Source: Bugula neritina
Taxonomy: Eukaryota > Animalia > Bryozoa
Assembly (NCBI GenBank): GCA_964035545.1
Contig: OZ037765.1
Location: 6,024,698 to 6,088,697 of the forward strand
Length of the DNA: 64,000 bases
Direction of reading: 5' to 3'
Below are positions 28,901 to 61,794 of this stretch, one piece after another. Both the position numbers and the translations under genes were made by a program. Positions within the stretch are counted from its first letter, which is position 1. Each line of letters opens with the position of its first letter. The notes below the pieces were generated by a model, which was not told where the DNA came from, searched no databases, and worked only from the letters and a program-made list of their open reading frames with translations.

Positions 28901-31900
28901 AATGCATTTCCTGGCCTGTCAAAAAGCTGTCATAAATGTAGCTACAATGGAAATATATTTAAAATTCAAACTTTTTGCTTATTGTCTTTTCAGTAAACAA
29001 TGGATGCCATCTTTGACTGACAGTTGAATGTCATCTTACTCTAAATGCTTTCCAAAGCACCTAAGTTACAGTTTCTACAAATTCAATAGTTGATTGCTAT
29101 GTGTTTTGACCAACACTCCTTGGTGTAATTGAATGATCTTAAGACTCTCAAATACAAGCTTTCATGTTACTTTAATGCGTAAATATATACTGTACGTTTT
29201 AGTTCCACCCCAGAATGTAGTGATAACTGCCAATGGACCATTGAGAGAGGGAGTAAGCGTCACCCTAATGTGCAACAGTGGTTCTAGTAACCCTGAGTCT
29301 ACAATTATATGGTATAAAGACAACACAGAGCTATCAAACCTTACTGATAATATACGACACGTACGAACAGAAAATGGTGACTTTAATGGGAAGTCAACAG
29401 TGAGCTCGTAAGTGCAACATTTCCTTTGGCACAGCAATTTTTAAGTGATGAGACACGTTGCCTTTGTTTAACAGCTGACTGTCTCAAATTTCACTGCTTA
29501 CTTAACTTCGGTTAATTTTTAACACCAACGTCTGCTGAATATGGATATTTTGCACCAAAAGTTCAAGTTCAACATGTAACATGATAATGACAATTTATGT
29601 ACTTATATAATGTTTTATATTAGGGCTGAATTTATTATATATTATCGTGATGCCATTAATAACTTAAGAATCAAGGGTATTCAGTCATAAAACTCATAAT
29701 TATATAGTGACTAGCTAGCTGTTTTATTTGGAATGTTGTAAAGTTTCTATCACCTGCTACTTGGACTTTGCATCATATGTTACTGTCAGTTTGTGCTGGC
29801 TCTTCTCTTTTAGGTATACATTTACACCAGTTGCCTCAGAGAATGGGGTCACGGTGCACTGTAGTGCACGGAACAGTGAGATTCGCAGATCTACCGCCCG
29901 AGGAATGTCACTAAATATCCTCTGTAAGTATCCTTTGCTAAACACTGTTGACAATCTACCATATTTTTAATTGTGACCTTGGATTTACTATTGTAAACAA
30001 TGTGTCTGGGTAACAAAGTGTATATAATTCTAATAAACGAGAGGTTGACTGGGTTATCTGGAATTAAGAGAACAAATTCCACTAAAATTGCAAATGATTT
30101 AGAATGAGAGTTTGCTTTGAATAGAATTCTATAAGTAATAGGTGTTTCTGACTCTAGCGATGCTTGGTAGTATGTAAACTTTGTGACAATAGTTTTTGTT
30201 GTAAAAATGAAATATCAACTTTAAATGGAGTATTTACTGTGAGTGCAAATACTAGGAGCACTTATTTTAGTAGAAAGAGGAGAAATGGGTAGGGGTATGT
30301 TATATAATATATAACTATATCATATAAACATCCTATGTTTTGTCTTATATTTTTAGACAAACCAAAATTTACTGACGTTCCAACTGTTCTCCAATTAGAA
30401 GAAGGAAAAAATAAAACTAACAACAATTTCGCAGCATTGAGTAATCCACCCGAAATAACTTATACATGGTTTAAGGTATTTTAATCAGATACCTCCCTAA
30501 ATTGCTTTTAGTGTAACATTTTAGCTATATTTCAGTTGTTGAAGATAAGATATGTTACATAACTATCATAATTCTGCCTGTGGTATTCATAAATGAATGA
30601 GGCAGTTGAAATTTTTAACACAAGTTCCCAAACAATTATTTGACAGTTGCCATTCAAGGGGAAAAGCATTGAGCTTTTCATTAATGAAATATAATAATGA
30701 TTAATGACAGACTCTAAGCCTAGGGCCACACTGTGCGTATTTTCGCATGCGAAAATTAAAATCCCGAGTAGCAAAGGTGTCCACTGTAGCGTCAGTGATG
30801 CGTGATAAATAAAGCTTTCATTTTTAAATCGCACTCGCTTTCAATAAAACGCAATTTACTGGAATATAGCACTAAATAAAGAAATTGGGCTCGCTGAATA
30901 GTTACCAGCCAATTAGGTGACGACGACAGAGACGATTCGCACTTGCGTTGAAAATGCAGAGCGACAAGTGCGAAGGTTTTCTCAACGCGCACAGTGGACA
31001 CCTTTGCTACTTGTGATTTCAATTTTCGCATGCGAAAATACGCACCGTGTGGCCCTAGGCTAAGTGAAAACCAAGGCTGAATCTACTAACATGATTTCTT
31101 ATCACAGCTTGATGGAGACACAGAACAAGAAATAAAATTCACCACCAAAAGAGACATCACTATCCCCCAGCTGTCGGCTACCGGCGCAGTTCTCAACCTC
31201 ATCAATGTGGACCGAGCTTTGACTGGTAACTACCGGGTGAAAGGAACAAACAATGAAGGGACATCTAATGCCAATTTCAAGATAGATGTACAATGTAAGT
31301 GCAATAGAGAGCAGGAATATAGTACATAGTGGACCTCATTGCAATTGCACAATAAGTTAATTAACAGTATAGTACTCAATGCACCAAGCAAAGCTGCACG
31401 CAATAATGGAAGAACAGTTTATAAAGCTAATCAAAAAGAGTTTATGTTGATATAGATCAAGACTTGAATTTGTATTTATTAATACCATGCTAAAAATACT
31501 ATTTCTTTACTCTTGGTAACTTAATAATTTAACATGACTTGATTAGTAGAAGTATGCCTGGGGCTTCACAAAGTTAGCTTTCAATAACAGCGTGTAAGAT
31601 ACAATCCTCTATGTTTTAAAGATGGTGCAGAAATAATGGGCTCGCCAACACAGACTACAGATGGTGAAGGCATATCCTTGCATTGTGTTATTGATGCGAA
31701 CCCACCCGTTGTTAAGAGTCATGCCAGATGGACGCGACTAGACTATGACATGACTCGTGGCACGCAGACTCTGTCCGAGACAGGAACTACTCGCACGCTA
31801 ACTCTCACGATACCAAGTGTCATGAGAGATGATATTGGCACTTTCACCTGTGAGGCCAACAACACATTTGGCTCTGTCAGCAAAGAATATTCTGTTGATC

Positions 31901-34900
31901 CAGTACCATGTAAGTAGATGCTGCTTGACTATTCCCTTATAGAGTTTGAAATATCTACGTATGGTCGACTGGCTATAACAATTTTTTATGTTATGGTGCT
32001 ACTGCTAGTCTTTATAAAATAACATAGCATTTAAACTAATTCAATTTTTTGTTCGTCTTCTAAAAAATCTAGAAAAGCATCAGATTAGTAAAAATAAACA
32101 TATCATATATGCTTGTCATTTTGGTAGCGGTATTTGTTATAATTATACGTAAGCAGAATATAAATTAAAGGCAATAAAATGTACAAATAAAATAGTATTG
32201 TGGGTGAAGTATTGAATATGTCAGTTCTTCGATGAGATAGAGACTCAGTAGCTGTTCATATAAACACGGGTGTACGATTACTTATTTATTGTACTAGGAG
32301 TTGAATATATGCCCTTTTGTTTAATGTACTTTAGTTCAACCTGTGATTGATAAAGCCCCCAGAACATCAAAATCTGCTGCTCAAACGTATGATGATGGCT
32401 ATATAAAGTGTAAACTAGATGCCTTCCCAGCTCCAGTGATCACCTGGCAAAAAGGAGACGATCCCATCACACTGGATGATGTAAAATACAACATGTCTAG
32501 CAAAACTGAAGGACCAATCAAGTTTAGCTATGTACTTATCATAAAGAATGTGGGCGAATCAGATTATGGCTCTTATAAATGTACTGCACAGAACTCAAAA
32601 GGCGTAGACACTCATGACATCATTTTATCTGGCACAAGTTAGTTACATTAACTAATATATTTTACAGCCGTATATATTATGATAAGGTAGTAAAATAGTT
32701 AGCTTTGGCCATTCAAACTTGCAGGAATAAAAATGATTACTCAACTTCTCTAAAACGATTTGTTATATAAACCTTATGGTGAAATGAATCTTTAAAGTGA
32801 TGATTGATAAAGTTGTATTTATGTTTCAACTGCCAAGTAAAAGTATCTGTTTATAAGTAGGTAGTCTAAATTCTCATCACTCTATTTCCATTGTGTAATC
32901 ATGATATAAATACATGTGAATCAGTTTGAGTGAGTAAATTTAAAAGCTTACATAAGCCTGTTTTATACCCACATACTTTTGACTTCCTAGGCAAACCCGA
33001 TCCTCCTACGGATATAACTTTGTTGAATGCTACTGACACATCTGTCATACTCTCCTGGACTCCAGGGTTTGATGGAGGTCTCCAGCAGAAGTATAATATC
33101 CGGTATAACTCACCTGGAGGAAGCTACATGTATGCTGATGCACCTTCTATTCCATTCACTGTTCGAGGTGAGATGACCTAAATTCTACGCTGACACACGA
33201 AGTCTAGGGCTACAACTATATGAAATATAGATACAAAAATTATGGCCTGGTTAATGCTTGTACTGATTTTAGGCTTAGATCCTGATACAGAGTATGAGTT
33301 TACCGTTCAAGCCTTCAACGATTTGGGTAAAAGTAATTACCAGCCCGTAACGGTGAAAGCCACTACTCTCCGTAAGTACCTTCTATAGTTTAACTGACAA
33401 TTACAGTTGGCTTATATATAAATTTTTCATTTATCTCGTTAATTTAGTATGAATTGTAATTATTTATTTTTTTTAAATATCCATGGTTTGATTTTATATA
33501 GAATTTGACAAATCTAAAGGTAACTATGCTAAATTAATTGCCGTGTATTTTATAATGATGGTTTTAGACTTCTTTTGCACAATTATTCTTTCTCTCAGCT
33601 GTTCTAATTGTTCAAAAACAAGCAAGCTTTAATCAAACTTGTTTATATTTTTACTGACTGTTTCTCATTCTCTTCACTCTACGTTATCTTTCACTCGTGT
33701 ATAATTGTATATTTATGTTAGCTAAAGCTAGGGCCACAAGCAACGGATTTCCGCTAGCGAAAACCTTTCGGAGGCAGCAAAATAGGGCTGTTTGGTGCAG
33801 ATTTTATGCAGTCAAACTGCTGAACAAATACTGCAACAATTGATGGTGATTCAATTGGTTCATCACTATTTAGCAAGTCCACTTTTTGAGTTTCAGTTCT
33901 ACGCCCTCTTTCCAATCAATCTCGAATTTATGAGAATAGCTAAAATGAATTCAAACTAAAATAATAGTTTAACACCATTGGCAAATACAATTGGCTACTG
34001 GAGTATTGCTCTCGATGACAACAATTGCGTGTGGCAGACAACTTTTGCAGCAGATTTTCACCATAATAATATAATGCTCTCATGCAAAATTCTGCTCAGC
34101 GTGGCTCTAGCTTAAGCAAGTTTAAGACTTTGGAACTTCAGGCTGCTTCTGATTCATAGTTATAGTGTAGCAGTGAAACATTGTTTCATTGCGTGTCGAT
34201 ATATTTGTTAATTTTATTAGTTTGCTCGTCATGTTCATGTCTTCATTCAGACCACATTCTATAACTCTTGCTTTGCGAAATTACGTTGATGGCATGATGC
34301 CAGCATAATATTGGTGATTTAGCAAAAGTTGGATCTAAGAAGTCAAGTAAAGCTTCTAAAGTTTAAACCAAGTCACATGATGCTTAGAGCACTTTTTTCA
34401 TGTCATTCATACAAGCTGATGCATGCCATGTATAGATAAATATTTACTCAAGTTTAACACGCAGTTTAAGAGTCATAGCAGTTTATAAATAAGATGAATA
34501 AAAGTATAACACCTGCAAAATTTTGCAACACAAAAACCTGGCAGTTACAAATTCTACAGGCTTGCAGTTAATTGATCAATAAAAAGTGCCAAGTCAAATC
34601 AAGTCAGTAGCTGTAGCAAAACTCCTCGAGTCAAGTAATTGTTGGGAGTCAAAATTTTTATGAAGTTGTATTGCTGCTTGTGCTATGTAATTACAACTAG
34701 CAATTTGCAGTGTAATTTTCAAGAATTATCCTGCATGATTTCTGAATATATTTATTACAATTTGCAGCAGCCACCACAGCTAAGCCTCAGACCATCAAAC
34801 CTGATGAGCCAATGTTCATAATCATTATGGCATTGGCTGTGGTTTTCGGCCTTTTACTTATTGTGACAACTGTACTGGTGTGCATCTTTGTAAGAAGGAG

Positions 34901-36684
34901 GAAGAAAAGAATGCTAAGTGATGGTTGGTTTATTCATAGTAAAGTATACAACATGTTTTATTATATTTCATTGCTACCTGTTTTAAGGGAGGAGCAGTAA
35001 TAGAGAAATTTGAAAATGAGAAATGCTGAAATTGGAGTTATCTCATTGTAATATTTTTAACCAGCAACCAAATCAAAGTTCATAAATACTTTAGCTGTTG
35101 AAATTAGTCTGTCTCCGCACCTAAACACTTTGTTTGTCCACTTTGAAGGCAACCTAAAATCTATATCATGTTTATTTTCTAAAATTAAGAACCTTTAGCA
35201 CTTGAACTAATAAATAGAGTTTTGCTTACAAAAACTGTATCATTTTATCAATTCTGTTCTCCTCTTAACTGCTTAAAAAGTATTTATAAACCAATTATGA
35301 TACTGTTAAATTTATGTTTTGCTTGCCAAAAGTATCACGATATCATGCTAATAGAGTATATCTACTTGGCTAAGTTAAAATGGAGCTCATATTTTGGTTA
35401 GCTCTTGTAGCCACAGACTCAGCGAGCCAGAGTAACACTGAACAGTTATATGGCACAAGTGTTGGCTCTCAGCCTCAGGATGATGCAAGGAGCTACAGCA
35501 CATCCTACGAGAAGGGATACGAAGATGATTATGCTAAACATTATGAAGATGATGAAAAAGATAACATAAAGTCAGCTCCTGCTAATGATAACTATATTTC
35601 AGCTAAAGATGTGCAGCCTTGGTCCAAGACAGAGGGTAAGCAAATGTGACCATCATTTATAAAAGCAGCACACTTTATGATAAAGAATAAAGTTGTAGTC
35701 ATTCAGGATTATTTTTATAATAAACACACTTGAGTTATGTTTCATGTACTGTGTGCAGGAGGAAATTTCGGTAACTATGGTCGGCAAACAAGTTTCAGAG
35801 GCGGATCTTCTGTGGATGAGCAATACGCCAACAGACTAAGAAACGCTACGAAGACTATGCAGCAACCAGACGCCAAACAGCGGGTAAATTGTAGACAGCA
35901 TCTCCCATTATTGTTTAGTAAGATTGTGTTAAGTTTTGCTAATTTTGCTATGCAAGAATTTTTAAACAAGGCCGTTAAAAAAACACATAAGAAGCAAAAA
36001 AGCAGTTCATTAAAACAAATTTGGTTTTATTCAGCATAGATGCATGTTTGCAGTGTTTCAACTCAATTTAATTTCACCTTACAAACAATTCCACTAACAA
36101 ATGTTTCAAGCCTTGAAGAAAATCTTCAACGATATATATTGAAATGATTCAACTCACAAGGTGCTTAATAAATAGATGCTAAGCGTATTAGCAAAACTTG
36201 CATCTGCAAGTCTGTAAATTATAACCTTCAACCTTATTTTGGTTTCAGCCTGCATTTGTGATGGGACGCCCTCCAGCCCCCAAACCTCCCACAGCTAGAC
36301 CCAATTACAGTGAATATCCCCCTCATGTACCAGAGAGAAACTATTCTCCCCAAATAGACTATAATATATCAGGTAAATGTTGGTGTTTTACCTAAGTGTG
36401 GTGTTGAAATTCCCCAGTAGCTCCTATAGCGCAATGGTTTGCACACCGACTTGCAAGTTAGAAGTCTGAGTTTCAATTTCCGGTAGAGGCAGAAGTTTTA
36501 CAAGTTATTCTATTCAACGTGAAAAATTGATACAAATTGGAAAAGTTGCTTTTGATATAAAGTATTTAGCGGCTAATGATTGTTTCTTCTTTTTCTAGGT
36601 GAAATAGGTCACACGTCTTTTGTCAGCAATACTCCAACACCTTCTCTTGTAAATGGAGATGACCAAAGAGGGGCTTTGGTGTGA
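16905..36684 (+). CDS. NPHS1: Nephrin / Sticks-and-stones / SYG-2 family Ig-superfamily receptor (signal peptide, 9 Ig, 1 FN3, TM, cytoplasmic tail)
   Basis: 22 exons in continuous frame: 16905-17100, 20098-20250, 20366-20525, 21036-21256, 22684-22980, 24275-24426, 25417-25567, 26665-26790, 27249-27425, 29203-29407, 29814-29923, 30357-30475, 31108-31294, 31622-31909, 32335-32637, 32991-33167, 33273-33371, 34768-34923, 35411-35635, 35759-35883, 36249-36372, 36599-36684. C2-set motifs GGNPLPTLQW and SSNPESTIIW, FN3 motif WTPGFDGG, TM followed by RRRKKR, C-terminus QRGALV* (nephrin ends RGHLV*). Confidence 0.88.
26884..26987 (+). mobile_element. Highly diverged, internally deleted copy of the tRNA-derived SINE
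   Basis: AGCAGCATCGGTCTAGTGGTTGGAGC...GGTAATGTCAATAAAGGCATCTGATCACAATTTCCTCTGTGC...AAGTCTTT is collinear with the SINE at 61049. Confidence 0.55.
30718..31060. mobile_element. PIF/Harbinger (Tourist-like) MITE, 343 bp, in a nephrin intron
   Basis: About 70-bp TIRs (GCCTAGGGCCACAC.GTGCGTATTTTCGCATGCGAAAATT...) and an exact TAA duplication on both sides (30715-30717, 31061-31063). Confidence 0.88.
33726..34112. mobile_element. Older, related Harbinger-type MITE in a nephrin intron
   Basis: Termini AGCTAGGGCCAC...GTGGCTCTAGCT flanked by TAA on both sides; shares the CTAGGGCCAC terminal core with 30718-31060. Confidence 0.65.
36420..36491 (+). pseudogene. Degenerate tRNA-like sequence (SINE head or tRNA pseudogene) in the last nephrin intron
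   Basis: A-box-like TAGCGCAATGG, acceptor stem 6/7 paired, decayed B box; the anticodon stem does not pair. Confidence 0.5.
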
Positions 36685-38355
36685 ACGACATCTTATCCAA
36701 TCCGAATAAATATTTATTTGAAATCAGAACTTTTCAGAATAGTTCAACAATAAGTTTCTGTTGAGTAAACAGTGCTACTCATATCTTATTATATGGTGTT
36801 GCACATATTTGTATAATATGGTATAACATAGACTTTGTGAGTGTAATGTAAATTACATCAGTGTTAGTGACGCCATGCTCAAGGCTTGACTGCTAAATAC
36901 ATACAATTAATTAGCAAAAAATCACTGAATTGCTTCTTATATATTTCAAGATTTCTACAGTTTTGGTGCTACTATTTTCTATGTTGGTGAATCCAATAGT
37001 GAACAATATTAACTCGAATTTTATTTAACACCCTTGTATTAGTTAAGCATTTCATGTATTTACTTTTCCGCTGCTCCACATCTTGGCTAATGAACAATTA
37101 CTGCTAATGTATATATTAATCATATTTGTATCACATATTTCTTCTACATGTACGGAATGCTCTTTGCAAGATGTATGTCTATGTTTGAAACAAAACTGTA
37201 AATTTTACATGAATTCACTTATACTATTCTAGTTATGGAGGTGCTTAGCATTATATAGTTATTTTATTATGTATGATGACAATATAATATTTGTTATATA
37301 ACCTGCATATTAGATCTCACATGACATTTTATTTGTATAGAAAGAAACACCATTGCTTGACATTGCTCTGTTAACGCAGATTATGCCTTATTGAATTTTA
37401 CCAAAGATAACTTGGTAGATTTACCATGTTTATTAACTCTTTTGTAGTTGAATAGAATACATGTAGTGGTTTGGTTTTAGACAAACTGGTGCTTTTTAGA
37501 TAAACAATAAAAATAATAATTTATTCTTTCTTCCGTATTTCAAAAAAGTTGAGTTATTACTGCATTTATATTTAAAAACATATCTGAGGCGCTAGGTATA
37601 GTCACTGGGTTAAAAAGAATACAATTTAGTCTAGGATGGGTTATACTGCCTTCTATTATTTAAGGCTTTCATCAATCTACTGCAATAGAAATTGAAAGCA
37701 AACAAAAATTTAGGGTGGGTCTTTCTCACCATATTATTATGTTATTCAAATAAAGCTTCATAGTTACAAAGATAACGGAGTTGTCTTTTTAAATGAAACA
37801 TTTGCTGGTACTTTGTAGTGTAGAAACACTGCAAGCACGTAAAATATTTAACAAAAAACACTTTTGACAAAAAGTGATTTTTTATGGTAAGCCTGCACTA
37901 TTAACTAACGCGACTTGTCAGTATAGAAAAGCTGGAAAGCCAGAAAGGCAAAGTCTACAGTGGTTTTTAACCAAATAAAATAATTCAAGTTTTATAAATA
38001 CATACGTGTATGTGCCTCAGCAATTATGAATACTAATAGCCAATAAACAAGTCAAAAGTTATATTTATTGCTCTTATTTTAGACTAGCAAATATTTATAA
38101 TTTAAAATATTATAATTATTATTAAGTTTAACTGAATTTGAAATTAAATATTAATGAATTTTAATTTGAAATACTCAATTTTAAAAGTAAATAATATTAT
38201 TTATATAGGAATATTAATATTTCATTATTTGTATTAACTATTATATTGATCTTTATTAGTAATGATTAATACAGTGGTGATTGTCATTCTCATTGCAATT
38301 ACTTTCAGTGTGAGTATTACTATTAGTGTATTACTATTAGTATTACTATTAGTAT

Positions 38356-38621
38356 TGTAGTAAGTTATGTAACTACTATGCGTGGGTTCCTAGCTTGTAA
38401 TTATGTCTATTTATCCACACCAATAAAGTATTTAGGTAAAAGTTTCCAAGTTTATTTACTACTAATTATATAAAAGATACAGCACGTACACAGATTAGAG
38501 ATTACATCTTTTCTTACACGCTCGCTCTACTGCAAAACTACTACTAACTGAGGGCTATCACGTGACGCACTTGGATAGGCTGAAGGAATACGGGGGACGC
38601 GCGCATTACGTCCTTACTACA
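38356..38621 (-). repeat. 3' LTR (266 bp)
   Basis: TG...CA ends with 9-bp inverted termini; preceded on the minus strand by the polypurine tract GGGGGGGCGG (38622-38631). Confidence 0.95.
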
Positions 38622-38972
38622 CCGCCCCCCCAGCAGAAAGCCCTACTTTCTGATAACACAGATACAATAAATTCGAACATAAAATGTTATAAAACTATAT
38701 AAAAAAAAACCGAGAGAGCGTGTGGCACATGAGAGAAAAACATGGCTATGTACAGTAATAAGAAACATATACATATATATAAAAAATATAACAGTAAATA
38801 CACAATGGCACCGGCGGGAGGCACTTATAAGGGATAGTTTGTAGAGGTAGAGCTGTATACTGGTAGGTTACTAGATTGTTACACTGAGTAATTGTTTGTG
38901 AGCACCGGCGTGAGAAGGGTCTGTAATGGGGCACCACCTGCTGTACCATCACGGATAGGGAGAGGAGGGACA

Positions 38973-40066
38973 TCATCTCCAAGCACTTCCTTTCATTCGG
39001 GCTACAGAGGCAGAGAGGGCCCGGAGTTCTGATGCGGCGGCGGAGATTCTCGGTGTCAGTCTTTGCACCTCTTTCTCTAATTCTCGTATCCGCTCTTCTG
39101 CCTCGCCTAGATTCCTGGCAGGGGCAGAGTGTCGGTTGGGGGATGAAGATGGCCAACGCCGTTTACGAGAAGGCCTTGGGGAGACAGGGGGGAGGGACGC
39201 CATCGCTGTGGTATATCGATGCGTCGTAACACGACTCTTGGTATGGAGTCGGGGCGGGGCACTGTGCGTGCGGGGGGTGAGGAACGGGATACGCGTGGTT
39301 TCCTATATCCTGGTGGTTTAGGGCAGGGTCCCTGTGTGATGGTCCTGGGTGCGGGGAACTCCTGACGCAGCCGTTCATATCGAACTGGGTCTGATATGAA
39401 CGGTCGGATGAGATTAAGGAATTGTGGAAAGGAGGGTTCGTCGACTTCGAACAGGTGTCCAATATGGCATCCCATAGTTCGCTGGTGACGGAGGATGTAG
39501 TCCCTGTGGTAACTATATTCACCACAGGGACAAAAGGTGGTGAAATAATGTTGGGGAATATGAACTCGAAGTCTTCGTGGGGTAGTGAAGTGAAGCTGGC
39601 ATAAACGGCAGGTGGTGCATTGGTCGTCTCCCTTGTGCTCTCGTATCAGTGTTTCTGTATCTGTTGTAACCTAGCATGATTGTTGTAGGAGTGCCTCCGG
39701 AAGAGTAGTGGGAACGGGTTCCTCGTTCCAAGCCATTTCTAGTGACGGCATGTCACCAGAGAGAGGAGAGAGAGCGGTATCTAAAAGAGCAGAATTACTG
39801 TTAGATCGAATATGATCTTTACACCATAATTCTGATGACAACCGACTGTTACTAGTCTGGGAGTCATACATCTTTTCAGATAGCACTCGAGGGACTGAGT
39901 CGTGTCGTGTAGACTGGCAGAGAGACATAGTGTCAAGCTCCAGATCTAGTAGATCGTCGGCCATCTTTATGTTCTCGTCGCCTTTCACGTAAGACTCAGT
40001 CCCCAGTAGTTGTGATTCAATCAAGGCGATTAAATCAGAACTGACTGATGGTAGACTGGTTTCCAT
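38973..40066 (-). CDS. Gypsy accessory ORF3: Ser/acidic N-terminus, C2H2 and C2HC-like zinc fingers, Pro/Arg-rich linker, basic motif, coiled coil (interrupted by one TAG and one frameshift)
   Basis: The frame of 40066-39671 stays open past the TAG to 39107 and encodes CRLCQLHFTTPRRLRVHIPQH and CPCGEYSYHRDYILRHQRTMGCH. A 1-nt shift at the G6 run 39187-39192 joins PSRKRR and LGEAEERIRELEKEVQRL... Confidence 0.7.
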
Positions 40067-40131
40067 GAGTAGAAATGTTAGCTCAGAGCAAGCTTACCTG
40101 AGAACCCGGTATTTGTAATCATACTCAGCGT

Positions 40132-43100
40132 TCAAGCTTGGATGTCCGTGGATTGAGTTTGAATGCGTCTTCCCTTGACAACGTCAGCGTACGAAAAGAC
40201 TGGGCAGCGTGGTTGTTGCGCACGGCTGGAACTATTTGCCCCGGGCGTAGTAGTTTTGTTTACTACTCCGCCTTCGCAAAAGTTGAGATTTCCGTGGTGT
40301 TCACAACTCCCACGCTTTGCTGCCAGTCCTTCCGTACGGCGCCCAGCTAGACTTTCATAACTGCCGTTTGTAACACGGTCACATATGTAGTCTTTAAGGT
40401 ATGCTGGGGGTTGTCTAGTACGCTGTCCCCGTTCCAGGGGAGGTGACGTATCAGCTGGAGAGGGAGTTGTAGCTGTTGGTTGGGGCGGCGTACTCACTGG
40501 TGGGCTATTTTGCTCCACCTGTGGTGTTTCTGGCCCGCCGTTGGTGGTGGTGTTCCCCTCTCCGCTGTTGTCTCCAGATGGAGCCCCTCCCACGGGGGGG
40601 TTTTGCACTTCCGGACGCGGATGCGGAACCGGAAGTGGTGGGGGTAGACTTGGTACTGGGGGCGGTGGGCGCACTTCCGTTGGTGGGAGTGGCGTCTCCT
40701 GCCTCACCAAGTCCTCTCCCCGCGGCACGACCACTTCGTACTCTGGTCCATGCCGTTGCCGCCCACGCGTCACTGTCTGCCTCCTGGGCTCCAACAACGG
40801 GGGGGGGCTGCTCCTGCTGCTCCTGGGCTAGCCCAATACGGTTTCAAGCGGGTTTCGTTCTGGACAGAGACCTGTCCAGATCGCTCCAACTTGTACGTAT
40901 GATTGGGCATAGCCTCAACTACTACGTAGGGTCCCACAAACTTAGGCTGGAGCTTAGCCGCTTGTCCTCGACGCCTACGGTAGTTGACCATCCACACCCA
41001 GTCCCCAGTTTGATAGAGAGGTGGTTCCTGAGAGTCCTCTCGCCGTACCTGCCACTGCTTCGCCCGCAGTATTTCGTGTGCGGCCCTCAGGTCCTCTATC
41101 AATTTACTGGCATACTCGTGGATGGTATAGTCCTGCTCTGGGATGTGGTATGTGAGGTGGTCAGGCACTCGCGTCTCTCGACCGAGCATCAGGAGGTTAG
41201 GGGTTTCCCCCGTACTGGTGTGTGGTGTACTACGGTAGGCCCGCATGACTTGCGGCAGTACCGTATCCCACTCCTCCTGACCCCGGCCGAGGAGCAGACT
41301 GCGCAGTGCATCGCCCAACATGCGATTGTTGCGTTCCACCACCCCGTTGCCTTGAGGATGGTACGGGGTGGTCCTGCTTTGGTTTACTCCCCAGAGGCGG
41401 CAGAGGTCGCTCAACAGTTGGGACTGGAATTGAGCCCCCTGGTCCGAATGTATTTGCTCAGGTAGTCCAAGATAGCAGAATACATTTTGATCCAGCACCC
41501 TGGCCACTGTGGGGGCGGACGCATCTGGAATAGCCAGGGCATCCGCCCACCGTGTAAAGTGGTCGGTTAATACTAGGATCCAACTGTTTCCTCTGGGGGT
41601 GACGGGCATGGGTCCGACTAGGTCGATAGCTACCACCTGCCACGGCCTTCCAGCATATAGCCTACGCCGTCCCGCTTCACCAGGGAGACGGCCATGCTTG
41701 CTGGCCTGGCAGATTTCGCATTGTTTGACTCTACGCCGCACCTCACGCTCCATGCCGGGCCAGTACCACCGGAGTTGTAACTTGGAGAGCACCCTGCTCA
41801 CCCCGGCGTGGGCTTGCTTGTGGGTGTCCCATACTAACTCCCGGCGTATGGCGGCTGGGCAGATCACCCTCTTCCTGCTGTACTGGTTGTTGTGAGCAGC
41901 CACTGTGATGGTCAGCAGACCATCTGGCCCGATCCGCAGGGAGTCCCAACGTTGGCAGTACGACCGTAACTCGGTGCATCCCTGCCGCAGTTGTTCTTCA
42001 CTGGGTCGTCGCCCCTCCTTTTTGGCACGATATACGTCGGCTACCACTCCAGGGAGGTCCTCCTGGAGTCTTCGTAGCTCCCTAACGTTATCAGCCAAGA
42101 CAGGATTGGCACGGAGGCGTTGGATAGCCTCCGGGGGCGTAGCGGCCTTCTGTAGGAGTTGACCCTGGTCCCAGTCATACTCCGTTTCAGAGTGGTTCAG
42201 TGCTCTCAACTCGGATTTTGGAGGACCTCCGTCCCTCTTCTCGATGTTGAGGCACTGTTTACACCCCTCGTCCGGTCGCCGGCTCAGTCCATCAGCATTG
42301 CCGTGTTTCTTACCGGGTCGGTGCTCGATCCGGTAAGAGAACTCGGCCAGGACCTCGAGCCATCGGGCGACTTGGCTGGACGGTTCTGCTCTCTTACATA
42401 ACCAAATCAAGGAGGCGTGGTCGGTCCGCAAGCGGAACTTCCTGCCGTATAGATAAGGTCTGAAATGCTTCACTGACTTGATTACTGCCAGCAATTCCTT
42501 TCGGGTAGTGCAGTAATTTCGTTCAGTGGGCGAGAGAGACTTACTGTAGTAGGCCACGACTACTTCGCGGCCCTCCTGCACCTGGGACAGCACAGCGCCG
42601 ACATTTTGGTCACTGGCGTCAGTATCGAGGATGTACTCCAGGGCAGGGTCTGGATAGGCCAGGATAGGGGCCTCCAGCAGGCGGCCTTTGAGGCAGTCGA
42701 ACGCTCTCTGTTCGACGGGAGTCCACTGCCAGGTCACCCCCTTTGCGGTGAGCCGGTTTAATGGCTGCGCTATCCCCGCAAAGTCTGGTATGTATTGCCT
42801 GTAATACCCTACCAGCCCCAGGAAAGCCCGTAGCCCGGTCAAATCCTGGGGGGTTACCCAATCTTCTATAGCTCGTACCTTTTCAGGATCCGTCGCCACA
42901 CCGTGACGGCCGACGATGTGCCCCAGGTACTTCACCTCTGGCTGCAAGAGAGCGCACTTGGAGGGTTTGAGCTTCAGATTGGCGCCTCGGAGTCGATCGA
43001 AGACCTCCCGCAGACGGCTGACGTGCGTCTGAAAGTCTGGGGAGATCACGATGACGTCGTCGAGGTATACTAGCAGTGTCTTCCAGTGGAGTCCACTGAG

Positions 43101-45500
43101 GACCTGTTCCATGAGCCGCTGGAACGTGGCGGGGGCAGAAGTCAGTCCGAAGGGGAGGACTTTCCACTTCCATAAGCCGTCCCGCGTGATGAACGCCGCC
43201 TTCTCCTGGGCGTCTGGGCTGAGGGGGACCTGCCAATAGCCGCTCAACAAGTCTAGCATACTGAAGTACTTGCTGCCGGCTAGGGCGTCCAGAGATTCGT
43301 CGATCCTGGGTAAGGGGTAGGCGTCCTGTATGGTCACGCTATTGAGCTTGCGATAATCCACACAGAACCGCCAACTGCCGTCTTTCTTTCGGACCAGAAC
43401 GACCGGTGAACTCCACGCACTATGTGCTGGCTCGATGAGGCCGCGGTCCAAAAGATCCCGGACTTGTTGGCTGACCTCCTTTTCCTTCTCGGGTCCCAGC
43501 CTCCTAGTGGGCTGCCGAATAGGGGTAGTCCCTGCAGCCAGCGGTATCTCATGACGGACGGCCGTGGTCAGGCCGACGTCATGGTCCCCACTGCTGAACA
43601 CGTCGCTATAATCACGTAGCAACTGAGCCATAGTCTGGCGTTCCACGTTGCCCGTGCAGCCGTTACACGCTGCCTGGTATAGCTCTTTGACGTGTGATGG
43701 GACGGTCCCCCGCCTAACTGACGGGCTCTGTTGGGGACCTTCCGTCGCAGCTCCCAGCGACGGCCCTATATCCTCCTCCTGGATGGAGTGGAAGCGACCC
43801 AGCATGGATCCTGACGGTAATTGTACCGCTTCGGAGAAGGGGTTGACACACTGCACCAAGATCTCTCCTCGGTCAGTCAGCCGGTTAAGACTGCTGGCGA
43901 GTTGGATTCTAGTGTGCGCACCTTCGACAACCCCTAGCCCCGAGAGTTGGCTATTGTTCACTCTGCAGTGAACGGTAGCCCGGGAGCGGCCGGGTATAGT
44001 ACAGTTGCGTACTACCTGCACACCTCCCGCTAGAGGACGACCGAACTTGTCGACGCAGGTGAGCTCTTTGCCGCCCATTAGCATGGCTGACTTGCTAAAG
44101 TCAATATGGCACCCGTGTCTCTTCAAGAACGGCATCCCCAGTATGGCATCTTCCTCCAGTGGGCTGATGACGAAGGTTTCCTGAATGGCCTGGTCGCGGA
44201 CGCGTCCAGCCAATTCTATGATACCGTAGAAAGGAATCCGTGACCCGTCAGCTAGGGTGCCCGGTTCCCCGGTATAGGGAGCTAAGGCTCCCCTCTCCTT
44301 GAGAGGGAGGGTGTCGAAGACCCGACGGCTGAGGAGATTAGTGGTACACCCGGAGTCTAGCAGGAAGGTGACAGCTTTACCGGCCACCTTCCCTGGCAAG
44401 AAGTAGCTGCCTCCGTGAGGTTGTACCCGTACTCCCCCAGCGTGCTCGGTCTCGGCCGAACGGGGCTGTGCCCGTTTGTTCCGCGGTTTGCGGGGCCGGT
44501 GAGAGTTTCCTTGCGGGGAGGCGTTCTGATCCTCCCCGATGCCCTGAGGGGCCTCGCTGGTCTGTTCCATTACTGGTAACGGACTGAAGCGGTTGGTGAG
44601 AGGCAAAGAGAAGGGGTCTCGTGGTCGACCCGGTTGGCTGGTTCGGCGAGGTGTTTGCCATTGACGGGGGGTGTGTTGCTGGGCCCGTTTGAATCGTGGG
44701 CCGCTCAGGTGGCGGTGCCCCTGGTTGCCGCTTTCCCAGCGTCGCATCATAGGTCTGGGGGGTTTTGCTGCCGTCCTCTTACTCTTCCTTGAGTGGTTGT
44801 ATGTTATCGTCGCCACCAATTGTCCCAGTCTAGTCATCAAGCGGCTTATCTCCATCTCTATGGGGGGTTTAGTGGTCGCGGCAGCTGTGTGGACCGGATG
44901 GTGTGGTTCCCTAGAGGTCTGGGGAGTGGTCTCTTCCGTCTTATAGAGTCGCTCGGCTCCAGCGTAGGCCTTGTTCTCCTGGATCGCAGCCTCGATTGTG
45001 GTCACTCCCTTGGCTTGTAACTGGTGGTGGAAGTCCAAAGAGTTGAGAGACTGTACAAAGGCTTCGAATGTGTAGTGCCGTCTGTGTGTTTCTGGCAGAT
45101 CGCTATACGCGGTCCGTGCCAGTCTCTGCACCAGAGTGGCGTGGTCAGAAAGCGGTGTACATGTCTTGCGGAGTAATCCTCGCAGCCTGGACTTGGCGAC
45201 GGCAACGGGCATGCCAAAACGGGCCCGTAGTGTAGCAATGATCCCGTTTATGCTAGGCTTCCACCCGTACGGCTTGGCTTCTTCCGTCAGTGCCATCCGC
45301 AGTTTTGTAAGGGTTACTCTTGGCGGCCATCTTGTAATGGCTGCAGCTTCACGGAATTCTTGAATGAATTGTTCAATATCCTCGCGGCCTGTGAACACGG
45401 GAACCTCCAACGTGTTCCTATATACCTCCTCTCCAGCTCCGAGAGGGCCTATAATAATGTTCTGCTCACCTCCTTCCATTGAAGTTACTCCCTCGTCCAT
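40132..45500 (-). CDS. Gag-Pol polyprotein (gag, aspartic protease, RT, RNase H, integrase); integrase tail continues after a 1-nt frameshift
   Basis: 1576-aa ORF 45500-40770 with LLDSG, YLDD, DTDASD, HHCC, IDLVG/SDQG/VERNN and FVGPY. The ORF 40797-40132 carries the typical integrase tail motif RGQRTRQPPAYLKDY and joins at the C9 run 40799-40807. Confidence 0.95.
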
Positions 45501-45541: not shown

Positions 45542-45560
45542 AATCCCACCGCTGCCACCA
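45542..45560 (-). promoter_or_regulatory. Primer-binding site complementary to the 3' end of tRNA-Leu
   Basis: Minus strand TGGTGGCAGCGGTGGGATT, 1 nt from the 5' LTR. The plus strand reads AATCCCACCGCTGCCACCA, the 3' end of metazoan tRNA-Leu(AAG/TAG) plus CCA. Confidence 0.88.
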
Positions 45561-45561
45561 C

Positions 45562-45832
45562 TGTAGTAAGTTATGTAACTACTATGCGTGGGTTCCTAGC
45601 TTGTAATTATGTCTATTTATCCACACCAATAAAGTATTTAGGTAAAAGTTTCCAAGTTTATTTACTACTAATTATATAAAAGATACAGCACGTACACAGA
45701 TTAGAGATTACATCTTTTCTTAGTTAGCACGCTCGCTCTACTGCAAAACTACTACTAACTGAGGGCTATCACGTGACGCACTTGGATAGGCTGAAGGAAT
45801 ACGGGGGACGCGCGCATTACGTCCTTACTACA
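45562..45832 (-). repeat. 5' LTR (271 bp)
   Basis: Matches 38356-38621 apart from an extra GTTAG near 45723; adjacent to the PBS. Confidence 0.95.
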
Positions 45833-46322
45833 GTATTAGTGTATTACAGTATTACTGTATAGTGTATTACTATTAGTATTAGTATTACTATTTGAGTATT
45901 ACTATTTGAGTATTACTATTTGAGTATTAGTTATTAGTTATTTACTATCATTATGTCTATTATTATTAGTTTTTATCATTATGGTTTTTTGATCATGAAG
46001 TATAAGTTTAACACTTTAAGTGATGCAAGAATAAATTTTTTCATTATAATAAAACTTTCAATAACAAAATTAAATTTAGCAGATATATTTATAACTTTAG
46101 CACTAGTTGATAACCATGTTATTGATTACAGCATTCTGTTGACTAAGAATAAGCATACTTGCAACTTTTCCTCTGATTTTGTTAAAAACTAGACTAAATA
46201 ATGATAGGTAGTGAGAACTTATCTAGTAAATTGAATTCACATTCATACTAATGAAACACAGCTGATAATTGTGTCAGTAAAATGATCACCTTTTCATATT
46301 TAGTTTTTGTTGCAGATCAATC

Positions 46323-49300
46323 ATGGCCAAAAGTAGATTTGAATATGTAAAGATGTTTGAACAACTCGATAGATGTCTACCAAATAGTTGGATAGTTGTA
46401 AGAATTGATGGTAAAGGTTTTCACAGGTTAGTTTATAAATATGATTTCTGGTTAAAAGATAAATTTTAACTTAGTAAATACACCCATAAGTTTTGAAAAG
46501 CTTTGAAGTTAAAAAATGTACCCTCTATCAACATAACATTTTCAGTGTTTTAAAGTGAACGGAAAATTTTACAATTTCACCCTACGACCAGCATTTCCTA
46601 TCATTCTGAACAAACAGGTGATTGCTAAGCTGGTGCCGCCCCCCCCCCCCCACAACCTCTTCAACACAGCAATTTTCATAGCAGATGATTAAAAAGACAA
46701 CATTGTGTCATTTTTTATAAATTTTTAGAGTATTGAAAGAAACACAGTCCCACAATTTGTTGCATGAAAATAGTCAAATTATTGTTAAGATGAGATATCT
46801 ACCTATTTTCTAAGAGTCTTTTGGGGAATGTTGGTAATGGCCAAGCGTGTTACGTGTTTATCTTCACCTTTTTTTATTATTTTTCACATGAAGAGTTTAA
46901 ATTGAAGTTTTCTGAGTTTTTTTATGTATTTGATGAGAAAAGAGAACATCTTTGTAATATGAGCTTGTTATTTACCTTACATAGTTATCTCAACCTTTCA
47001 TAGGCTTTTTCATTTAGATTTTTTGCTAAAATTTTGTTTCATAGTTTGCTTTTCTACACAAAAGTTTGTACTAGCAGATTAGTTCTGAAAACTGGTAAGT
47101 TGTATGATAACTTTACCAAGGGCTTACACTGTACCACACATGATAACAATTTAATACAATCCGATAAGCACATTCAAGTTATGGTCTACTGCAGCCGCAA
47201 TAAGTCGAAAGCTTTTCTTAGAACTATTTATGGATCATAAGATTCAGTTTATTATAATATCTGCTTTAGCTCCTTCGAATTTTAGATTTTCTGAGCAACA
47301 TAAGTTTAAGAAGCCAAATGACGAGCAAGCTTTGAGTTTAATGAATGACTGCGCCAAAAGCGTCTTAACCAACTTTAGTGACATTGTCATTGGATATGGT
47401 CAGAGTGATGAGTACAGCTTTGTTTTTAAAAGGAACACTGAAACATATAACAGACGAGCAAGGTAGTGTATTGTAAAATATCACAGCTTTTTTGGGTCAA
47501 ATTAACAGGTTAAATAGTTGTAAAAGGTAAAATATGATTTATTCATGTTTGACTATAAATCTGAGTAATTTACAGCTCCTTTCATGATCGTATCTTTAGC
47601 ACTCACCAACAATTCTATATCTACACAATTTACACAACAAAGATGCATGAGATAGTTTTTATTACATATTAAATTTGTTTTTATGTTTTAGTAAACTGTT
47701 GTCAACTGTAGTTAGTCTGTTTACTTCAAACTACGTGTTCAAGTGGACAAAGTTCTTCCCAACAACAGAACTACTTTACGCTCCATCCTTTGACTCCCGG
47801 GCAGTCCTTTATCCTACTACCCAAAATCTAAGAGACTATTTAAGTTGGAGACAAGCTGATTGTGAGTTTATGCTGTAATAAAACAGCAAAGTGTACCTAG
47901 CAGTAGTAGCACCACCCCCATCATTTCCTGCTATGATGTTGCAGGCTATAAACTAGTGTCAGCCATGAGCTTGATCAGGTTAACCAATATAGCAAAATGG
48001 TCTTATCAGATGTGCTAGCTGTTGTATTTTAGAGTTGTCTTCTTTATATAAACACATTCTACAAGTACGCATAAAGATGTCATTTGGATTAGAAGCTAGT
48101 GTCATTAGCATTTGGTACTTTCACTTATATTTATTATTCAAGCTTGAATAAGTATGGATTGTATGAAGCCATGTCAGGGTTGTGGTTGTGACTGTGTAAA
48201 CTGCATTCTGGGTACTTGGGTAACAGCTTGTTTGATGTCCAAAGAGCGTATCAATTACTGAATATAAAAAGATAACATTCATGCAGCTTGTTTTTATTGA
48301 TAATGCTGCATTATTTGAAAGATATTTCTCTGTAGTTTCTGATTTTATAATCTTGTTTTCGTCATCATTAGCAATGTGTGGAGAACTATTGTAGCCAAAC
48401 GTTAAACCCTTGATAATATATTTTGTAGGCCACATTAACAACTTGTACAATACTTGCTTTTGGAAGTTGGTGTTGGAATCTGGCCTGAATCATCAACAAG
48501 CTGAAGCAAGATTAAAGGTACTAAATACAAGAAAATATTTTTTCTTAAATCGATAAATTATATTTATACAACTCGGTTTTTTTTTCATTTTAAATAAGAT
48601 GTAATTGTAAACTGAATTGGGTTAATATATATTGTTAGATATACACTGAAATTTATATATTTCAAACTTGGGAGTAATAAAGAGCCACTATTCCAATATC
48701 AACTACGGGTTTGTAAAAGCAACTTGGGATGATTTGCATTCGCTTAATTCAATCTCATGTATCATTGATACACATTTTAACAGTGATAGTCTCACTGTCA
48801 GCTACATACTGTTGTTACTTCCTTCAACTTACAGTGCCTATAAGGGACATTATTTAACTTTGTGATTTCTAGATATTCGTAATAATCTTGTTCACAGGGA
48901 ACGGACTCAGCGGAAAAAAATGAGCTGCTGTTCTCAGAGTTTAATATCAACTACAATAAGGAACCAGAATTTTTTCGAAAAGGCACCGTATTGTATAAAG
49001 AAAAGGTATTAGTATTTTCCTATATTTACTTTTATATTAGATTATAAATATGGTGCTGCAGCTTCGATGAAGTCAAACACCCTTAGATAGATCCCTATAT
49101 AAGATAGTTGCATACAGTTTATATTATTTAACTGCAATATATTATTTTTAGTAGATTGTTCTTACAAACATAGTTTGCTTTCTACTGTAAATTTCTATTA
49201 AAAAGGGAGCACCGAATTTTGCGGAATTAGGCTTTTCATTGTGTACCATAATATGTCAAATTGCCAATGCTGCTATGTTGATGAGTCAAACTAATTCTGT

Positions 49301-55112: not shown

Positions 55113-57204
55113 CTATTTTCCTGTATGATGGATCTTCATGTGATAATCTAGGTTAGATTTCTGAGTAAATTTACTGGTGCAAATATGACATTGAAACGGC
55201 TTTTCCCCTGTATGAGTTCTCATGTGAGCATCCAACTGAGATTTCTGAGTAAATTTCCTGTCACAAGTGTCACATTGGTATGGTTTTTCCCCTGTATGAA
55301 TTCGAAGGTGAAAATTTAAGTTGGTTTTCTGAGTAAATCTACGATTACAAATATCACACTGAAATGGTTTTTCCCCTGTATGAACCTTCATGTGATAACT
55401 TAGGGCAGATTTACTAGCAAACGTCTTGTCACAAGTATGACATTGAAACGGCTTTTCTCTATGGGTTCTCATGTGAGTATTTAGGGAACGTTTCTGGGCA
55501 AACTTCTGGCCACAAAAATTACACTGAAAAACCTTTTCTCCTGCATGAGTTCTAAGGTGAAAACGTAAGTTGGCTTTTCGAGAAAATTTTCTGTTGCAAA
55601 TATGACATTGAAATGGCTTTTTTTCTTTATGAGTTTCGAGGTGAGTATTTAGAGAATGTTTCCGAGTAAACTTCCTGTTGCAAATATGACATTGATACTG
55701 TTGTAGTCTTGTATGAGTATTCAAGTGCTGAACTACTTGGGATTTCAGGTTACTTTTCATATCACAATAAGGACATTGGAATGATTTTCCTCCATCTAAT
55801 CTCCTTATATAGAGATCCTTACTAAAATTCAGATTAATTATATCACCGTCAGCACGTTGCCTTTCCCCTGCAAGTCATAAAGCATGTGAGAATATTATAT
55901 ATAACACTCAAGTTGTAGCTCACATGCCAAACATATACTTTTTAAAAAAACAGTTTTTAATCAGCAGGCTATAGATTTAGGTGGTTTTCAAATCAATAAA
56001 GATTCAGTTAAAACCACATCTGATATTGAAAGAAAATGAATGGATTTTAAATCAGCATTTTTCACAAAAATTAAATTCTACAGATTCAGATATTTAATAT
56101 TAATTAGAAATACTGATGTGTAGAGTTATTGTGGCTGAATATGTGAATGAGACTATCAGAATTAGTATAATATATAAATAAGACGATCAGAATTAGTATA
56201 ATATATAAATAAGACGATCAGAATTAGTATAATATATAAATGAGATGATCAGAATTAGTATAGCCCTAACTATGTGTCATCCTAAATATTTATGTGAATT
56301 CACTACCTTCCTCAGCCTGTTCCTCCTGACTACATAGTAATGTCACTGAATTAGAGTTGTCTGCTTCTTCCGCACACTCAAAATACTCCACTTCGATGTC
56401 TAAGTCAAACAGAGTAATAGATAATTAACAAATAAAACCGATTGGAAAAATTTTCTCATGTTCAAAAGAAGTGTTTTTTTCTATTGATCAATGTGAACAT
56501 CAACTAAACATTCTATCCTAGAAAAGAAAATAAGAAAAGCTTCACCATAGTGGAGTGATTAGAAACTATAAGCAGAAAAGACATCAGATGACTACTAACC
56601 ATTTGGTAGTTCTACTTCCTTATCACACACAGTACTAGTTTCTGATATAGCCTCCACTCTGCCTACAAACATATTATATACACTACACAATGTATACAAG
56701 TGTAGTACCTACTAGGTGTGAACTTAGCCTAGGAAAGAGCATGGAAAAAGATGGTAACACAGGCTATGAAACTCTGAAAATTTGGAAAGTACAGACTACA
56801 CTGAACTGAAACTTAGTTTAACTCAACCGAACTTTAAAATTGAAGAAACCATATTATCACTTGATTTATACTATCAGCAAAGGACATGGGCATAGATTAT
56901 CAGCAATCAATTAGAATTAGATCATGCCTTGTCTAAAAATACTATTTTCCATGATTTGTCCTATTAGGAGAAAGAAGACAAGAATGTCTTATCTACTTCA
57001 TCATTATGTAGAAAGAAAAGATAAATCATATATATTCATATAAAAAGTATGTACAAAGGTTGAACTGTTAAAAGTGACTAAGCAATAAGCATTGCCAAAA
57101 TATTCAAAATGAACTCATACTGAATGCCCACCTCCATATTCTGAGTAACCTGGTCTATCATTTGATGTCTCTACATAGTAGGAGGGCTCCTGCTTTACCT
57201 TCAT
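55113..57204 (-). CDS. C2H2 zinc-finger protein with 8 tandem fingers
   Basis: Finger exon 55867-55113 with HTGEKPFQC linkers; small upstream phase-1 exons 56399-56307, 56662-56600 and about 57206-57130 (MKVKQEP). The start is uncertain; a micro-exon 57657-57645 (MDLQG) is possible. Confidence 0.8.
56155..56262. repeat. 31-bp minisatellite, about 3.5 copies, intronic
   Basis: ATCAGAATTAGTATAATATATAAATAAGACG-like units at 56155, 56186, 56217 and a partial copy at 56248. Confidence 0.9.
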
Positions 57205-59220: not shown

Positions 59221-61048
59221 GCAACTGAAACGTCATTGTCAATACGGATACCAGCCCTACTGATACTTATAGTGATCCTGATACTGTAATAGTGATACTG
59301 ATAGTCATACTCATAGTGATAGTCACTATCATATTCATAGTGCCTAGGGCTAGTCGGCTAGTGGCATCTCAAACACTTATGATACTCTGATAGCAAATTT
59401 TATTATAAAGACTACACGGTTATTTTATAATGTACTAAATGTGTTTAATATAAATGTATTCATATTGATTACAATGATCATGAATAATATTCTATTCTTT
59501 TTTACCTTGGTTCAAAGGCCCAAAGGGTTAAAGTTAGTCTGTCGACCCCATAATAAATAATAGTAATACGAGTAATTATTACATTTTAGAGGCCTCGATT
59601 TTTAAGCAAATAAATTAATTGGAATCGCTGTTGCATCTTTTCTCTCCCATAATCATTATTAATTTTTACGCTGATTAGTTATAACCCGAATCAAAAGGCT
59701 GCAAATTTTATTAGTATATTAAGTACGGAGTTGTCTTTACTCGGTTTTTTTAACATTATGGCTGACTTCCAGTAAATGGAGATCGTTTTAATAATAGCTT
59801 TTTATTACTGCGCTTAAACTTAAACTTTTAGCATTAAAATAATAAAGCTGCAATTATTGAACTATACGCGTACATCACAGTTTATTATGTGGGTATACAA
59901 CTATAAAGTTATCCTACCCCAACTTAGGTAAGATGACTCTGAATTAGTAAAAAATAAATGAATAGTGTACGCAATTTCTGTAATAATTTATTGGCTGTTT
60001 GTTTAGTTTTACATACAATCTGCTATATTTAATTTCTAAAATTACCTACTATCAACAGTTATTATTTTTATCGAGCAGTTGAAAAAAATGTCATTAAAAT
60101 AGTTAATTTAGCTTTTCAATCGACCGAGGGAATAAATTCCTTTTCTCATTTCGTAAGTTTATAAAGATTGCACGAATGCCTAATGTGTGCATAAATAAGG
60201 AACGAAACACTAGAATGAAATCTGTGGAAAAAACATAGAATTGGGGAAATCCGAGAATACAATGATTATTCTTCAGGAAAACTGAAACTGTAGTACAACA
60301 GCTCTTGTAAGAGTGACAAGTTGTCGTGAATATTACGTTTTATTGTCAAGAAAAACTGTAGTTTCAGTTTGATTTTTAGTTTTATTACTGTAATAGCTAA
60401 ACCATTCAAATTAGCTTTTTTAATCTTTATTTATTCCATTGTTTAGCATGTAAATTAAAGTGTTGGCCGATTTTTTTCAGGCAAATACCTAATCTAAATC
60501 TTAGTTCTTACACTTACTCACTAACTTACTGTTACTGTATTAGTGTTACAGTTAAATTCAATGTTATTCGCATTGTAATAGTTAAAGTTGATCTCAAAGT
60601 CAATGAATGAGTCATCAGACCATAATGATTATGGAGATCATTATTGTGGTTATCATTACGATGAGTAATTATCATTATGATTATGAGTATATTATTATTG
60701 CTATCAATATAAATATGAGTATCTTGATCATGATTATCATTGTGGTATAACGTAAGACTAAGAATAATGTTATTGTAATCGTAATACCAATGGTAATTAT
60801 TATTTTAATAATTTTAGTATTACTATTGCTATAACTATTTACTTTTAGCGAATATTGCTATTTTAAAATTACCATTTTAAATAATCATGATAATAATTTA
60901 AATTAGCAATAATCAGGATCAGTATCACCAATACTAATTTAGTAGTTAACTAATTACTATTAGTGATTACTAAGATTAATAGTAATACTGCAAACACAGC
61001 AATAGTCATAGTTTAAGTTTTAGCCTATACTTGTGCTTATAATTTAAA

Positions 61049-61290
61049 GGAGCAGCCCTGGTCTAGGGGTTAGAGCGTTCGCCTAGTAAGCACGAAGTCA
61101 TGGGTTCGAGCCCTGACATAGGCCAATGGTGATGTTAGGAAGAGCATTCAGTCATAATTGCTCCCGTGCCTCATTTGAATAAGTCTTTAGTCCGATTTAA
61201 CAAAAAAACCCTTCCATCAGGGATTTTCTCCCAGGGATGGTTGTTGTGGTGGGTTTTTACAATTTGGAGTAACGTAAACTCACTGAATAA
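61049..61290 (+). mobile_element. tRNA-derived SINE
   Basis: A box TGGTCTAGGGG and B box GGTTCGAGCCC with no acceptor stem closure; body is shared with copies at 62494-62705, 10095-10180 and 26884-26987. Confidence 0.82.
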
Positions 61291-61296
61291 TATATA

Positions 61297-61584: not shown

Positions 61585-61646
61585 ACTCACACAAGCCACG
61601 CCCACGCTATATCCAATATCTATGTCAATCTCAGGGTTGTGCACCC

Positions 61647-61664
61647 CACACACACACACCCACA

Positions 61665-61756
<92 letters not shown>

Positions 61757-61794
61757 ACACACACACACACACACACACACCCACACGCACACGC

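Follow-up and report, generated by a model that had tools for sequence, protein, structure and literature searches.

A Gypsy element in the genome of the bryozoan Bugula neritina carries, between pol and the polypurine tract (PPT) and hence in the env position, a real and conserved accessory gene that is under coding constraint. This gene, ORF3, occupies positions 40066-38973 on the minus strand of the window, as the analysed stretch of 64,000 nucleotides is called here, and is broken in the window's copy by a stop codon and a frameshift; it belongs to a large, old group of Gypsy elements. Its product, in which an acidic disordered N-terminus is followed by a zinc module, a basic motif and a C-terminal coil, is tentatively read below as an element-encoded transcription factor that binds the element's DNA and sustains its transcription against host silencing.

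ORF3 is present in the window as three pieces, which were analysed separately and neither joined nor mended. Piece 1 (39671-40066, minus strand) comprises an N-terminal helix, an acidic region predicted to be disordered and an NES-like motif, and ends at a copy-specific stop at 39673-39671, beyond which the frame continues open over 39670-39107; piece 2 (39193-39670, minus strand) holds the conserved double zinc-finger module and a Pro/Arg-rich linker; and piece 3 (38973-39186, minus strand) follows the frameshift with a basic PSRKRR motif and a predicted 47-residue coiled-coil helix, the motif and heptad tail being read in a different frame (39302-38973) after a frame change within the C-run at 39187-39192. 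The original prediction had placed all of these features correctly (the ATG at 40066, the stop, the open frame to 39107, both fingers and the C-run). Among 436 candidates, 11 homologs of the middle piece were recovered (342-383 aa, 58-74% identity, E 3e-75 to 5e-56), and ten of these 11 full-length proteins are intact and contain counterparts of the three pieces in the same order, from a shared start Met through the coil, the exception being P0010, whose C-terminal third diverges. Another protein, P0137, matches piece 1 and the opening 23 residues of piece 2 without a difference and reads through the stop position; it may derive from the window's own species. At the ORF3 stop, all five contigs listed from run X1, a run containing 55% of the sampled words, differ from the window (depth 5285/5285), and at the C-run five contigs differ from it in length (depth 4424/6806). 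Because ten of the 11 homologs are intact and the run X1 contigs differ at both breaks, the stop and the frameshift are specific to the window's copy, and the gene is conserved in relatives; mutation and assembly error are both possible origins, two of the element's three breaks lying in C-runs (slippage). That a coding gene exists in this slot at all, the central claim of the original prediction, is upheld by the colinear homologs and by the variants in the run contigs: among the 33 best-supported ORF3 variants listed, one row at the stop being left out, 23 are synonymous, where the transition/transversion mix predicts 9.8 (p 3e-6), and no variant creates a stop.

The element that harbors ORF3 is 7.5 kb long, lies on the minus strand and has paired LTRs and a 4-bp TSD; the window averages ~33% GC, with an island of 52-59% GC at 39-45 kb. 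The 5' LTR (45562-45832, minus strand, 271 bp, TG...CA termini) and the 3' LTR (38356-38621, minus strand, 266 bp, TG...CA ends) are 100% identical save for one 5-nt indel, and the insertion is young. An 18-nt PBS (45543-45560, minus strand), which we take to be of the tRNA-Leu type, precedes a gag-pol ORF of 1578 codons (40770-45500, minus strand) that encodes protease, RT, RNase H, integrase and an SH3-like end, the Gypsy order according to Pfam matches; neither a chromodomain nor a CCHC match was found by Pfam in this ORF. The gag zinc knuckle at ~44750-44720 (minus strand) looks eroded, the zf-CCHC match being absent in the window's copy and present in the gag of the related locus L067. 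Pol is followed by a Pro-rich C-terminal tail (40132-40827, minus strand) that is out of frame with pol in this copy, the two frames differing at the C-run 40807-40799; this third break goes beyond the original prediction, and the relative P0169 reads through the same region in a single frame. Downstream of ORF3, a non-coding gap of ~340 bp leads to the PPT (38622-38631, minus strand).

The most strongly conserved part of the protein is its zinc-finger module. A HMMER scan of 1.84 billion 50%-identity representatives returned 130 matches at E<=0.001, 55 of them at 1e-10 and 14 at 1e-30, at least one of the 130, P0101, being a false, repeat-driven match; local iteration over 141 proteins then gave 116 domains of ~110 aa each. 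Finger 1 (39548-39610, minus strand) has the C2H2 consensus C-x2-C-x3-F-x5-L-x2-H-x3-H and meets the C-x2-C-x12-H-x3-H pattern, and finger 2 (39467-39532, minus strand) reads C-x-C-x12-H-x5-C, with a fourth ligand that varies across the family. Across the 116 aligned domains, ligand columns 1-7 are conserved at 93-99% (105/109, 110/111, 113/114, 111/116, 114/116, 112/116 and 107/115), and the eighth in 78/96; the Arg-rich helix of finger 1, the finger-2 segment C-x-C-G-x3-S-x2-R-D and a V-D strand end are likewise kept. An AlphaFold2 model built from 99 sequences shows the core (pLDDT 89-98) as one unit of helix, finger 1, finger 2, strand and two helices. The original prediction of two zinc fingers thus stands with regard to the conserved Cys/His residues and needs revision with regard to their independence: as modeled, the fingers form a single compact module of ~110 aa, in which 5 residues link them and additional strands and helices occur, rather than a Kruppel-type array, and the 7-residue TGEKP-type linker of such arrays is absent, as is a standard second finger, its place being taken by one that starts C-x-C.

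The profile and structure searches proposed alongside the original prediction yielded these 130 profile matches; no Pfam family passed its cut-off, and no solved fold proved close. Pfam gave sub-threshold C2H2 and coil matches, including zf-C2H2_4 in 43 of 99 family members at E<=1, with the window's piece below the curated cut-off; Foldseek returned no match at E<=0.001 against PDB and BFVD; the best VIA-align Z was 3.6, weak and confined to the fingers; and the best profile match to solved structures (E 1e-6) was likewise to the fingers. The nearest solved matches by both profile and fold are DNA-binding C2H2 proteins, again restricted to the fingers. A possible resemblance of the module to ASCIZ/IDD/STOP1-type finger pairs found no support in these searches, fingers of these types being absent among the best 25 of 83 Pfam families and the solved-structure matches listed. 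The module is therefore described as C2H2-related and as lacking a catalogued family, which is distinct from any claim of a new fold.

Beyond the module, the overall layout is retained across the family. In a set of 45 long homologs that includes near-duplicates, the N-terminus is acidic in 43, the middle is basic in 40 and an NLS-like motif is present in 37, and the C-terminal heptad score exceeds that of 95% of shuffles in 39; the basic motif and heptad tail noticed in the original prediction are thereby confirmed as family features. In the model of P0002, a short N-terminal helix leads into a disordered stretch (residues 24-86); after the core and a linker modeled with low confidence comes a C-terminal helix of 47 residues. 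The N-terminus has a pLDDT of <50 and the C-terminal helix (312-358) one of 89-96; a homodimer prediction, run without an alignment, scored 0.03. That the protein is a divergent envelope or fusogen, as its position would suggest, is barely conceivable: none of the 45 long homologs has a transmembrane-like segment (a 19-residue window with Kyte-Doolittle >1.6; the window's pieces reach <=0.93), the N-terminus is acidic rather than hydrophobic, and the Cys and His residues follow zinc-finger spacing. The 187-aa middle piece, the sole query of the structure searches, gave no significant match, to a fusion glycoprotein fold or otherwise. Because no signal or transmembrane segment is present, ORF3 is not env, unless an unseen spliced exon adds one; the original prediction had drawn the same conclusion.

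An acidic disordered region combined with a zinc module, a basic signal and a coil is the layout of a transcription factor, although acidic disordered regions are common and not diagnostic. This layout is kept family-wide, including in pol-fused and integrase-less forms, and for this reason a role as trans-activator or anti-silencer is favoured, tentatively, for ORF3. The protein would enter the nucleus via its basic motif, dimerise through its C-terminal coil and bind DNA with its Arg-rich finger helices, and its acidic region would activate transcription or counter silencing. Coding constraint, the seven near-invariant Cys/His positions and the DNA-binding C2H2 proteins that are the nearest solved matches are in favor of a transcription factor; against it, the fold matches are weak, and the short linker and extra elements are unlike canonical DNA-reading arrays. 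C2H2 fingers also bind RNA and protein.

Several relatives carry the module within pol, which fits a targeting role better than a transcriptional one. P0169 encodes RNase H, integrase, tail and module in one ORF of 1460 aa, its integrase region sharing 57% identity with the window's pol across 588 aa and its module being 26% identical, and an integrase-tail motif precedes the module in frame in P0128 and P0122 as well, making three of the 130 proteins with the core. These fusions would fit an integration tether, in which the zinc module, in the manner of a chromodomain, would direct the integration complex towards a DNA repeat or chromatin state that it prefers, either as an extension of the integrase or as its separate partner. 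The window's copy is itself inserted in a hexamer-type simple repeat: the left flank (38298-38355) has the 4-bp TSD (38352-38355) inside a TAATAC/TAATAG-type array, and the right flank (45833-45948) has the TSD (45833-45836) and the remainder of the same array, arrays of this type accounting for 508 of the 56,519 host bases of the window (0.9%). Nevertheless, this is a single insertion site, and the run X1 contigs gave no informative loose ends at the LTR edges. Moreover, in the window's subfamily ORF3 has remained a frame apart from pol, and its own start is conserved. In P0169, the stretch between integrase and module is ~480 residues long, and loss of a stop in a single copy could look like a fusion. 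Also against a tether stand P0095, P0151 and P0106 (two clusters), candidate non-autonomous elements keeping the accessory module, in which protease, a long spacer and the module share one ORF with no RT or integrase match; since these join protease to module in this way, the module is kept without an integrase of its own. A tether, the main rival of a transcription factor, is rated rather unlikely. The pol-fused homologs retain, by eye, a Met and then an acidic segment ahead of the module. P0062, in which the integrase end is joined in frame to mid-ORF3, is probably an internal deletion in a close relative, and shows the linkage of integrase and ORF3.

The same gene position recurs in a distant element. 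Motif scans picked up 8 viral and 84 metagenome loci, of which L067 alone is genuinely homologous (106.6 bits; the runner-up reached 20.6 bits, from the motif alone), and the other 91 of the 92 were dropped as chance matches. L067 runs from an ORF3-like gene through a stop, PPT, LTR and a PBS of the same 18 nt as the window's to gag with a CCHC knuckle and protease, which is read as a collapsed, permuted or tandem element; its ORF3-like gene, 34% identical over 90 aa, lies directly before the PPT. Gag and protease of L067 (1556-1) do not share a frame, and a slippery-type site lies where gag ends; in the window, a single frame covers gag-pol. The ORF3 position appears, from such comparisons, to be old, being shared by elements only ~30% identical in this gene, and the remaining homologs, mostly without sequence context, would all derive from elements too. 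A quick tree built on 134 columns, in which 55 of the 122 inner branches are left open, separates the window's subfamily from most pol-fused forms across the midpoint with limited support, and the direction of host-element transfer is not derivable from it. Among the metagenome contigs, 78 pattern matches included none confirmed as a related locus, and the viral contigs held no match for P0169; a profile search of 941-2685-aa proteins found zero module carriers among 6051 candidates, a count of little weight since P0169 surfaced by another route.

The family also extends to annotated host proteins. When 30 clusters were looked up, four had species-named records, all from cheilostome bryozoans (Watersipora subatra and Bugula neritina), the others being metagenome or Logan entries. 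The module occurs once or twice in XP_067940964.1 and XP_067944745.1 of W. subatra and in KAF6040922.1 and KAF6040923.1 of B. neritina; these proteins share the zinc module with ORF3, and some a C-terminal coil, but are annotated as host genes and uncharacterised. P0165, P0166 and P0116, from Bugula and Watersipora, have by eye a common N-terminal motif that is absent from the element proteins and suggests a host gene family built on the module; protein-atlas searches with P0165 returned generic C2H2 and unnamed clusters only. The bryozoan proteins suggest either domestication of the module or a host source for it, and the annotated genes may be domesticated copies, the source of a capture or unmasked elements. 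Taken together with a GC3 of 0.43-0.48 in ORF3, lower than the 0.64 of pol, and with the broken state of the window's copy, they lend some support to the notion of a functionless passenger, a host zinc-finger exon that was recently captured. Such a passenger is highly improbable and largely refuted by the coding constraint, the intact copies and a deep tree with the same position in distant elements; likewise, a recent capture unique to this copy, contemplated with the original prediction, is not borne out.

A further alternative is an export or packaging factor like Rev or CERV, which would bind unspliced element RNA in the nucleus, multimerise via its coil and exit by a leucine-rich signal. 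The list of features is as reported for CERV of the Caenorhabditis elegans element Cer1, namely a zipper, an NLS, a candidate NES and a Cys finger, and CERV, likewise encoded by an animal Gypsy element, is according to the accessible text a nuclear accessory protein other than env, which Cer1 RNA requires for its export but not for its transcription (PMC10309623). ORF3 has the predicted NLS-like motif and coil helix, together with an NES-like motif at residues 35-44 in seven of 12 close homologs and in the window; this motif fails in the other five. The need to export unspliced RNA would be created by two candidate donors, the only strict consensus splice donors in the element by motif scan: one at 45469, within a donor-like site (45463-45472, minus strand) 31 nt into gag, and one at 40097, accompanied by a branch-point-like candidate around the ORF3 start (40056-40100, minus strand). 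Both the NES-like motif and the donors thus count against a transcription factor. The finger of ORF3, however, is C2H2/C2HC where that of CERV is a candidate C4, and nothing like the M or G domain of CERV is predicted. CERV further differs in being spliced from exons partly shared with gag and in having a ring-forming M domain and a G-protein-like domain, and is described as having no obvious homologs outside nematodes in the part of the text available (PMC10309623); ORF3, a free-standing ORF after pol with a C2H2+C2HC module, is set apart from it by description rather than by sequence comparison. An export factor is considered unlikely, and a transcription factor remains the preferred, if tentative, reading. 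ORF3 itself would be expressed from a spliced or internally started message; no consistent in-frame splice joining gag or pol to ORF3 was found by eye and motif, and the ORF3s of rotifer elements are typically spliced, according to the accessible text (PMC5408684).

Third genes of this kind have precedents, such that the original prediction was right in calling the gene a non-env one and overstated the rarity of that condition, non-env ORF3s being already known in animal LTR elements (PMC5408684; PMC10309623). The bdelloid rotifer LTR retrotransposons carry family-specific non-env ORFs after pol, including a coiled-coil type; these differ from ORF3 in encoding GDSL esterases, DEDDy exonucleases, or TM or coiled-coil proteins, and neither 'zinc' nor 'C2H2' occurs in the main text of that paper (PMC5408684). 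Chromoviruses resemble P0169 in bearing an extra module at the pol C-terminus, as far as the accessible texts describe it (PMC12440569; PMC3605345). The chromovirus module is a chromodomain, whereas the one here consists of two zinc fingers and has a gene of its own in the window's subfamily; no chromodomain family is among the Pfam matches of the window's pol and tail or of P0169. Chromodomains of chromoviruses have a targeting role. Foamy virus Tas is a trans-activator of a complex retrovirus, encoded between env and the 3' LTR, and VANC proteins are anti-silencing proteins of plant VANDAL transposons; both are element-encoded nuclear regulators of other element classes, and no sequence or fold match between them and ORF3 was found.

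Within the literature searched, mostly at title or listing level and with Repbase, Dfam, subscription journals and supplements outside its scope, no C2H2-type ORF3 was found to be described for an animal Gypsy lineage. In the text available, the word 'zinc' is absent both from a survey of errantiviruses across metazoans, bryozoans among them (PMC13524379), and from an annelid LTR survey (PMC8556966), and the accessible portion of a bryozoan genome paper has neither 'gypsy' nor 'zinc finger' and reports that repeat libraries for the group are scarce (PMC13326412). To the known non-env ORF3s, this Gypsy accessory gene seems to add a conserved one with an uncatalogued double zinc finger.

Animal Gypsy elements are usually viewed as gag-pol with or without env, and C2H2 fingers are normally a host weapon against transposons; here, a transposon lineage carries C2H2 fingers of its own and has kept them over deep divergence. 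Few element-encoded nuclear regulators are known to us, CERV being a tested case. With its unbroken natural proteins, a confidently predicted structure and both a free and a pol-fused gene layout, the family makes activation, targeting and export directly testable, and the module, for which Pfam has no entry, accounts for several uncharacterised proteins of bryozoans. It is conceivable, if doubtful, that these elements form a 'complex' Gypsy lineage with its own sequence-specific zinc-finger factor, which has switched between extending integrase and standing free as a third gene, acts on the element by steering or activating it (possibly at a simple-repeat target) and has been domesticated as a bryozoan host gene family.

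Other features of the window were observed in passing. The host exons on either side of the element, at 31588-36039 and 47155-47466, look by eye like those of an Ig/FN3 membrane protein and a tRNA-His guanylyltransferase, respectively. An array of 84-bp repeats at 55140-55728, typical of a tandem C2H2 zinc-finger gene on the minus strand, belongs to the host and has no match to the ORF3 core profile. At 61039-62715, 168-bp inverted arms (83%) flank a long CA repeat, and a long inverted repeat at 11090-13176, with ~800-bp arms of 98-99% identity and a 487-bp spacer, constitutes a young foldback or DNA-transposon-like element.
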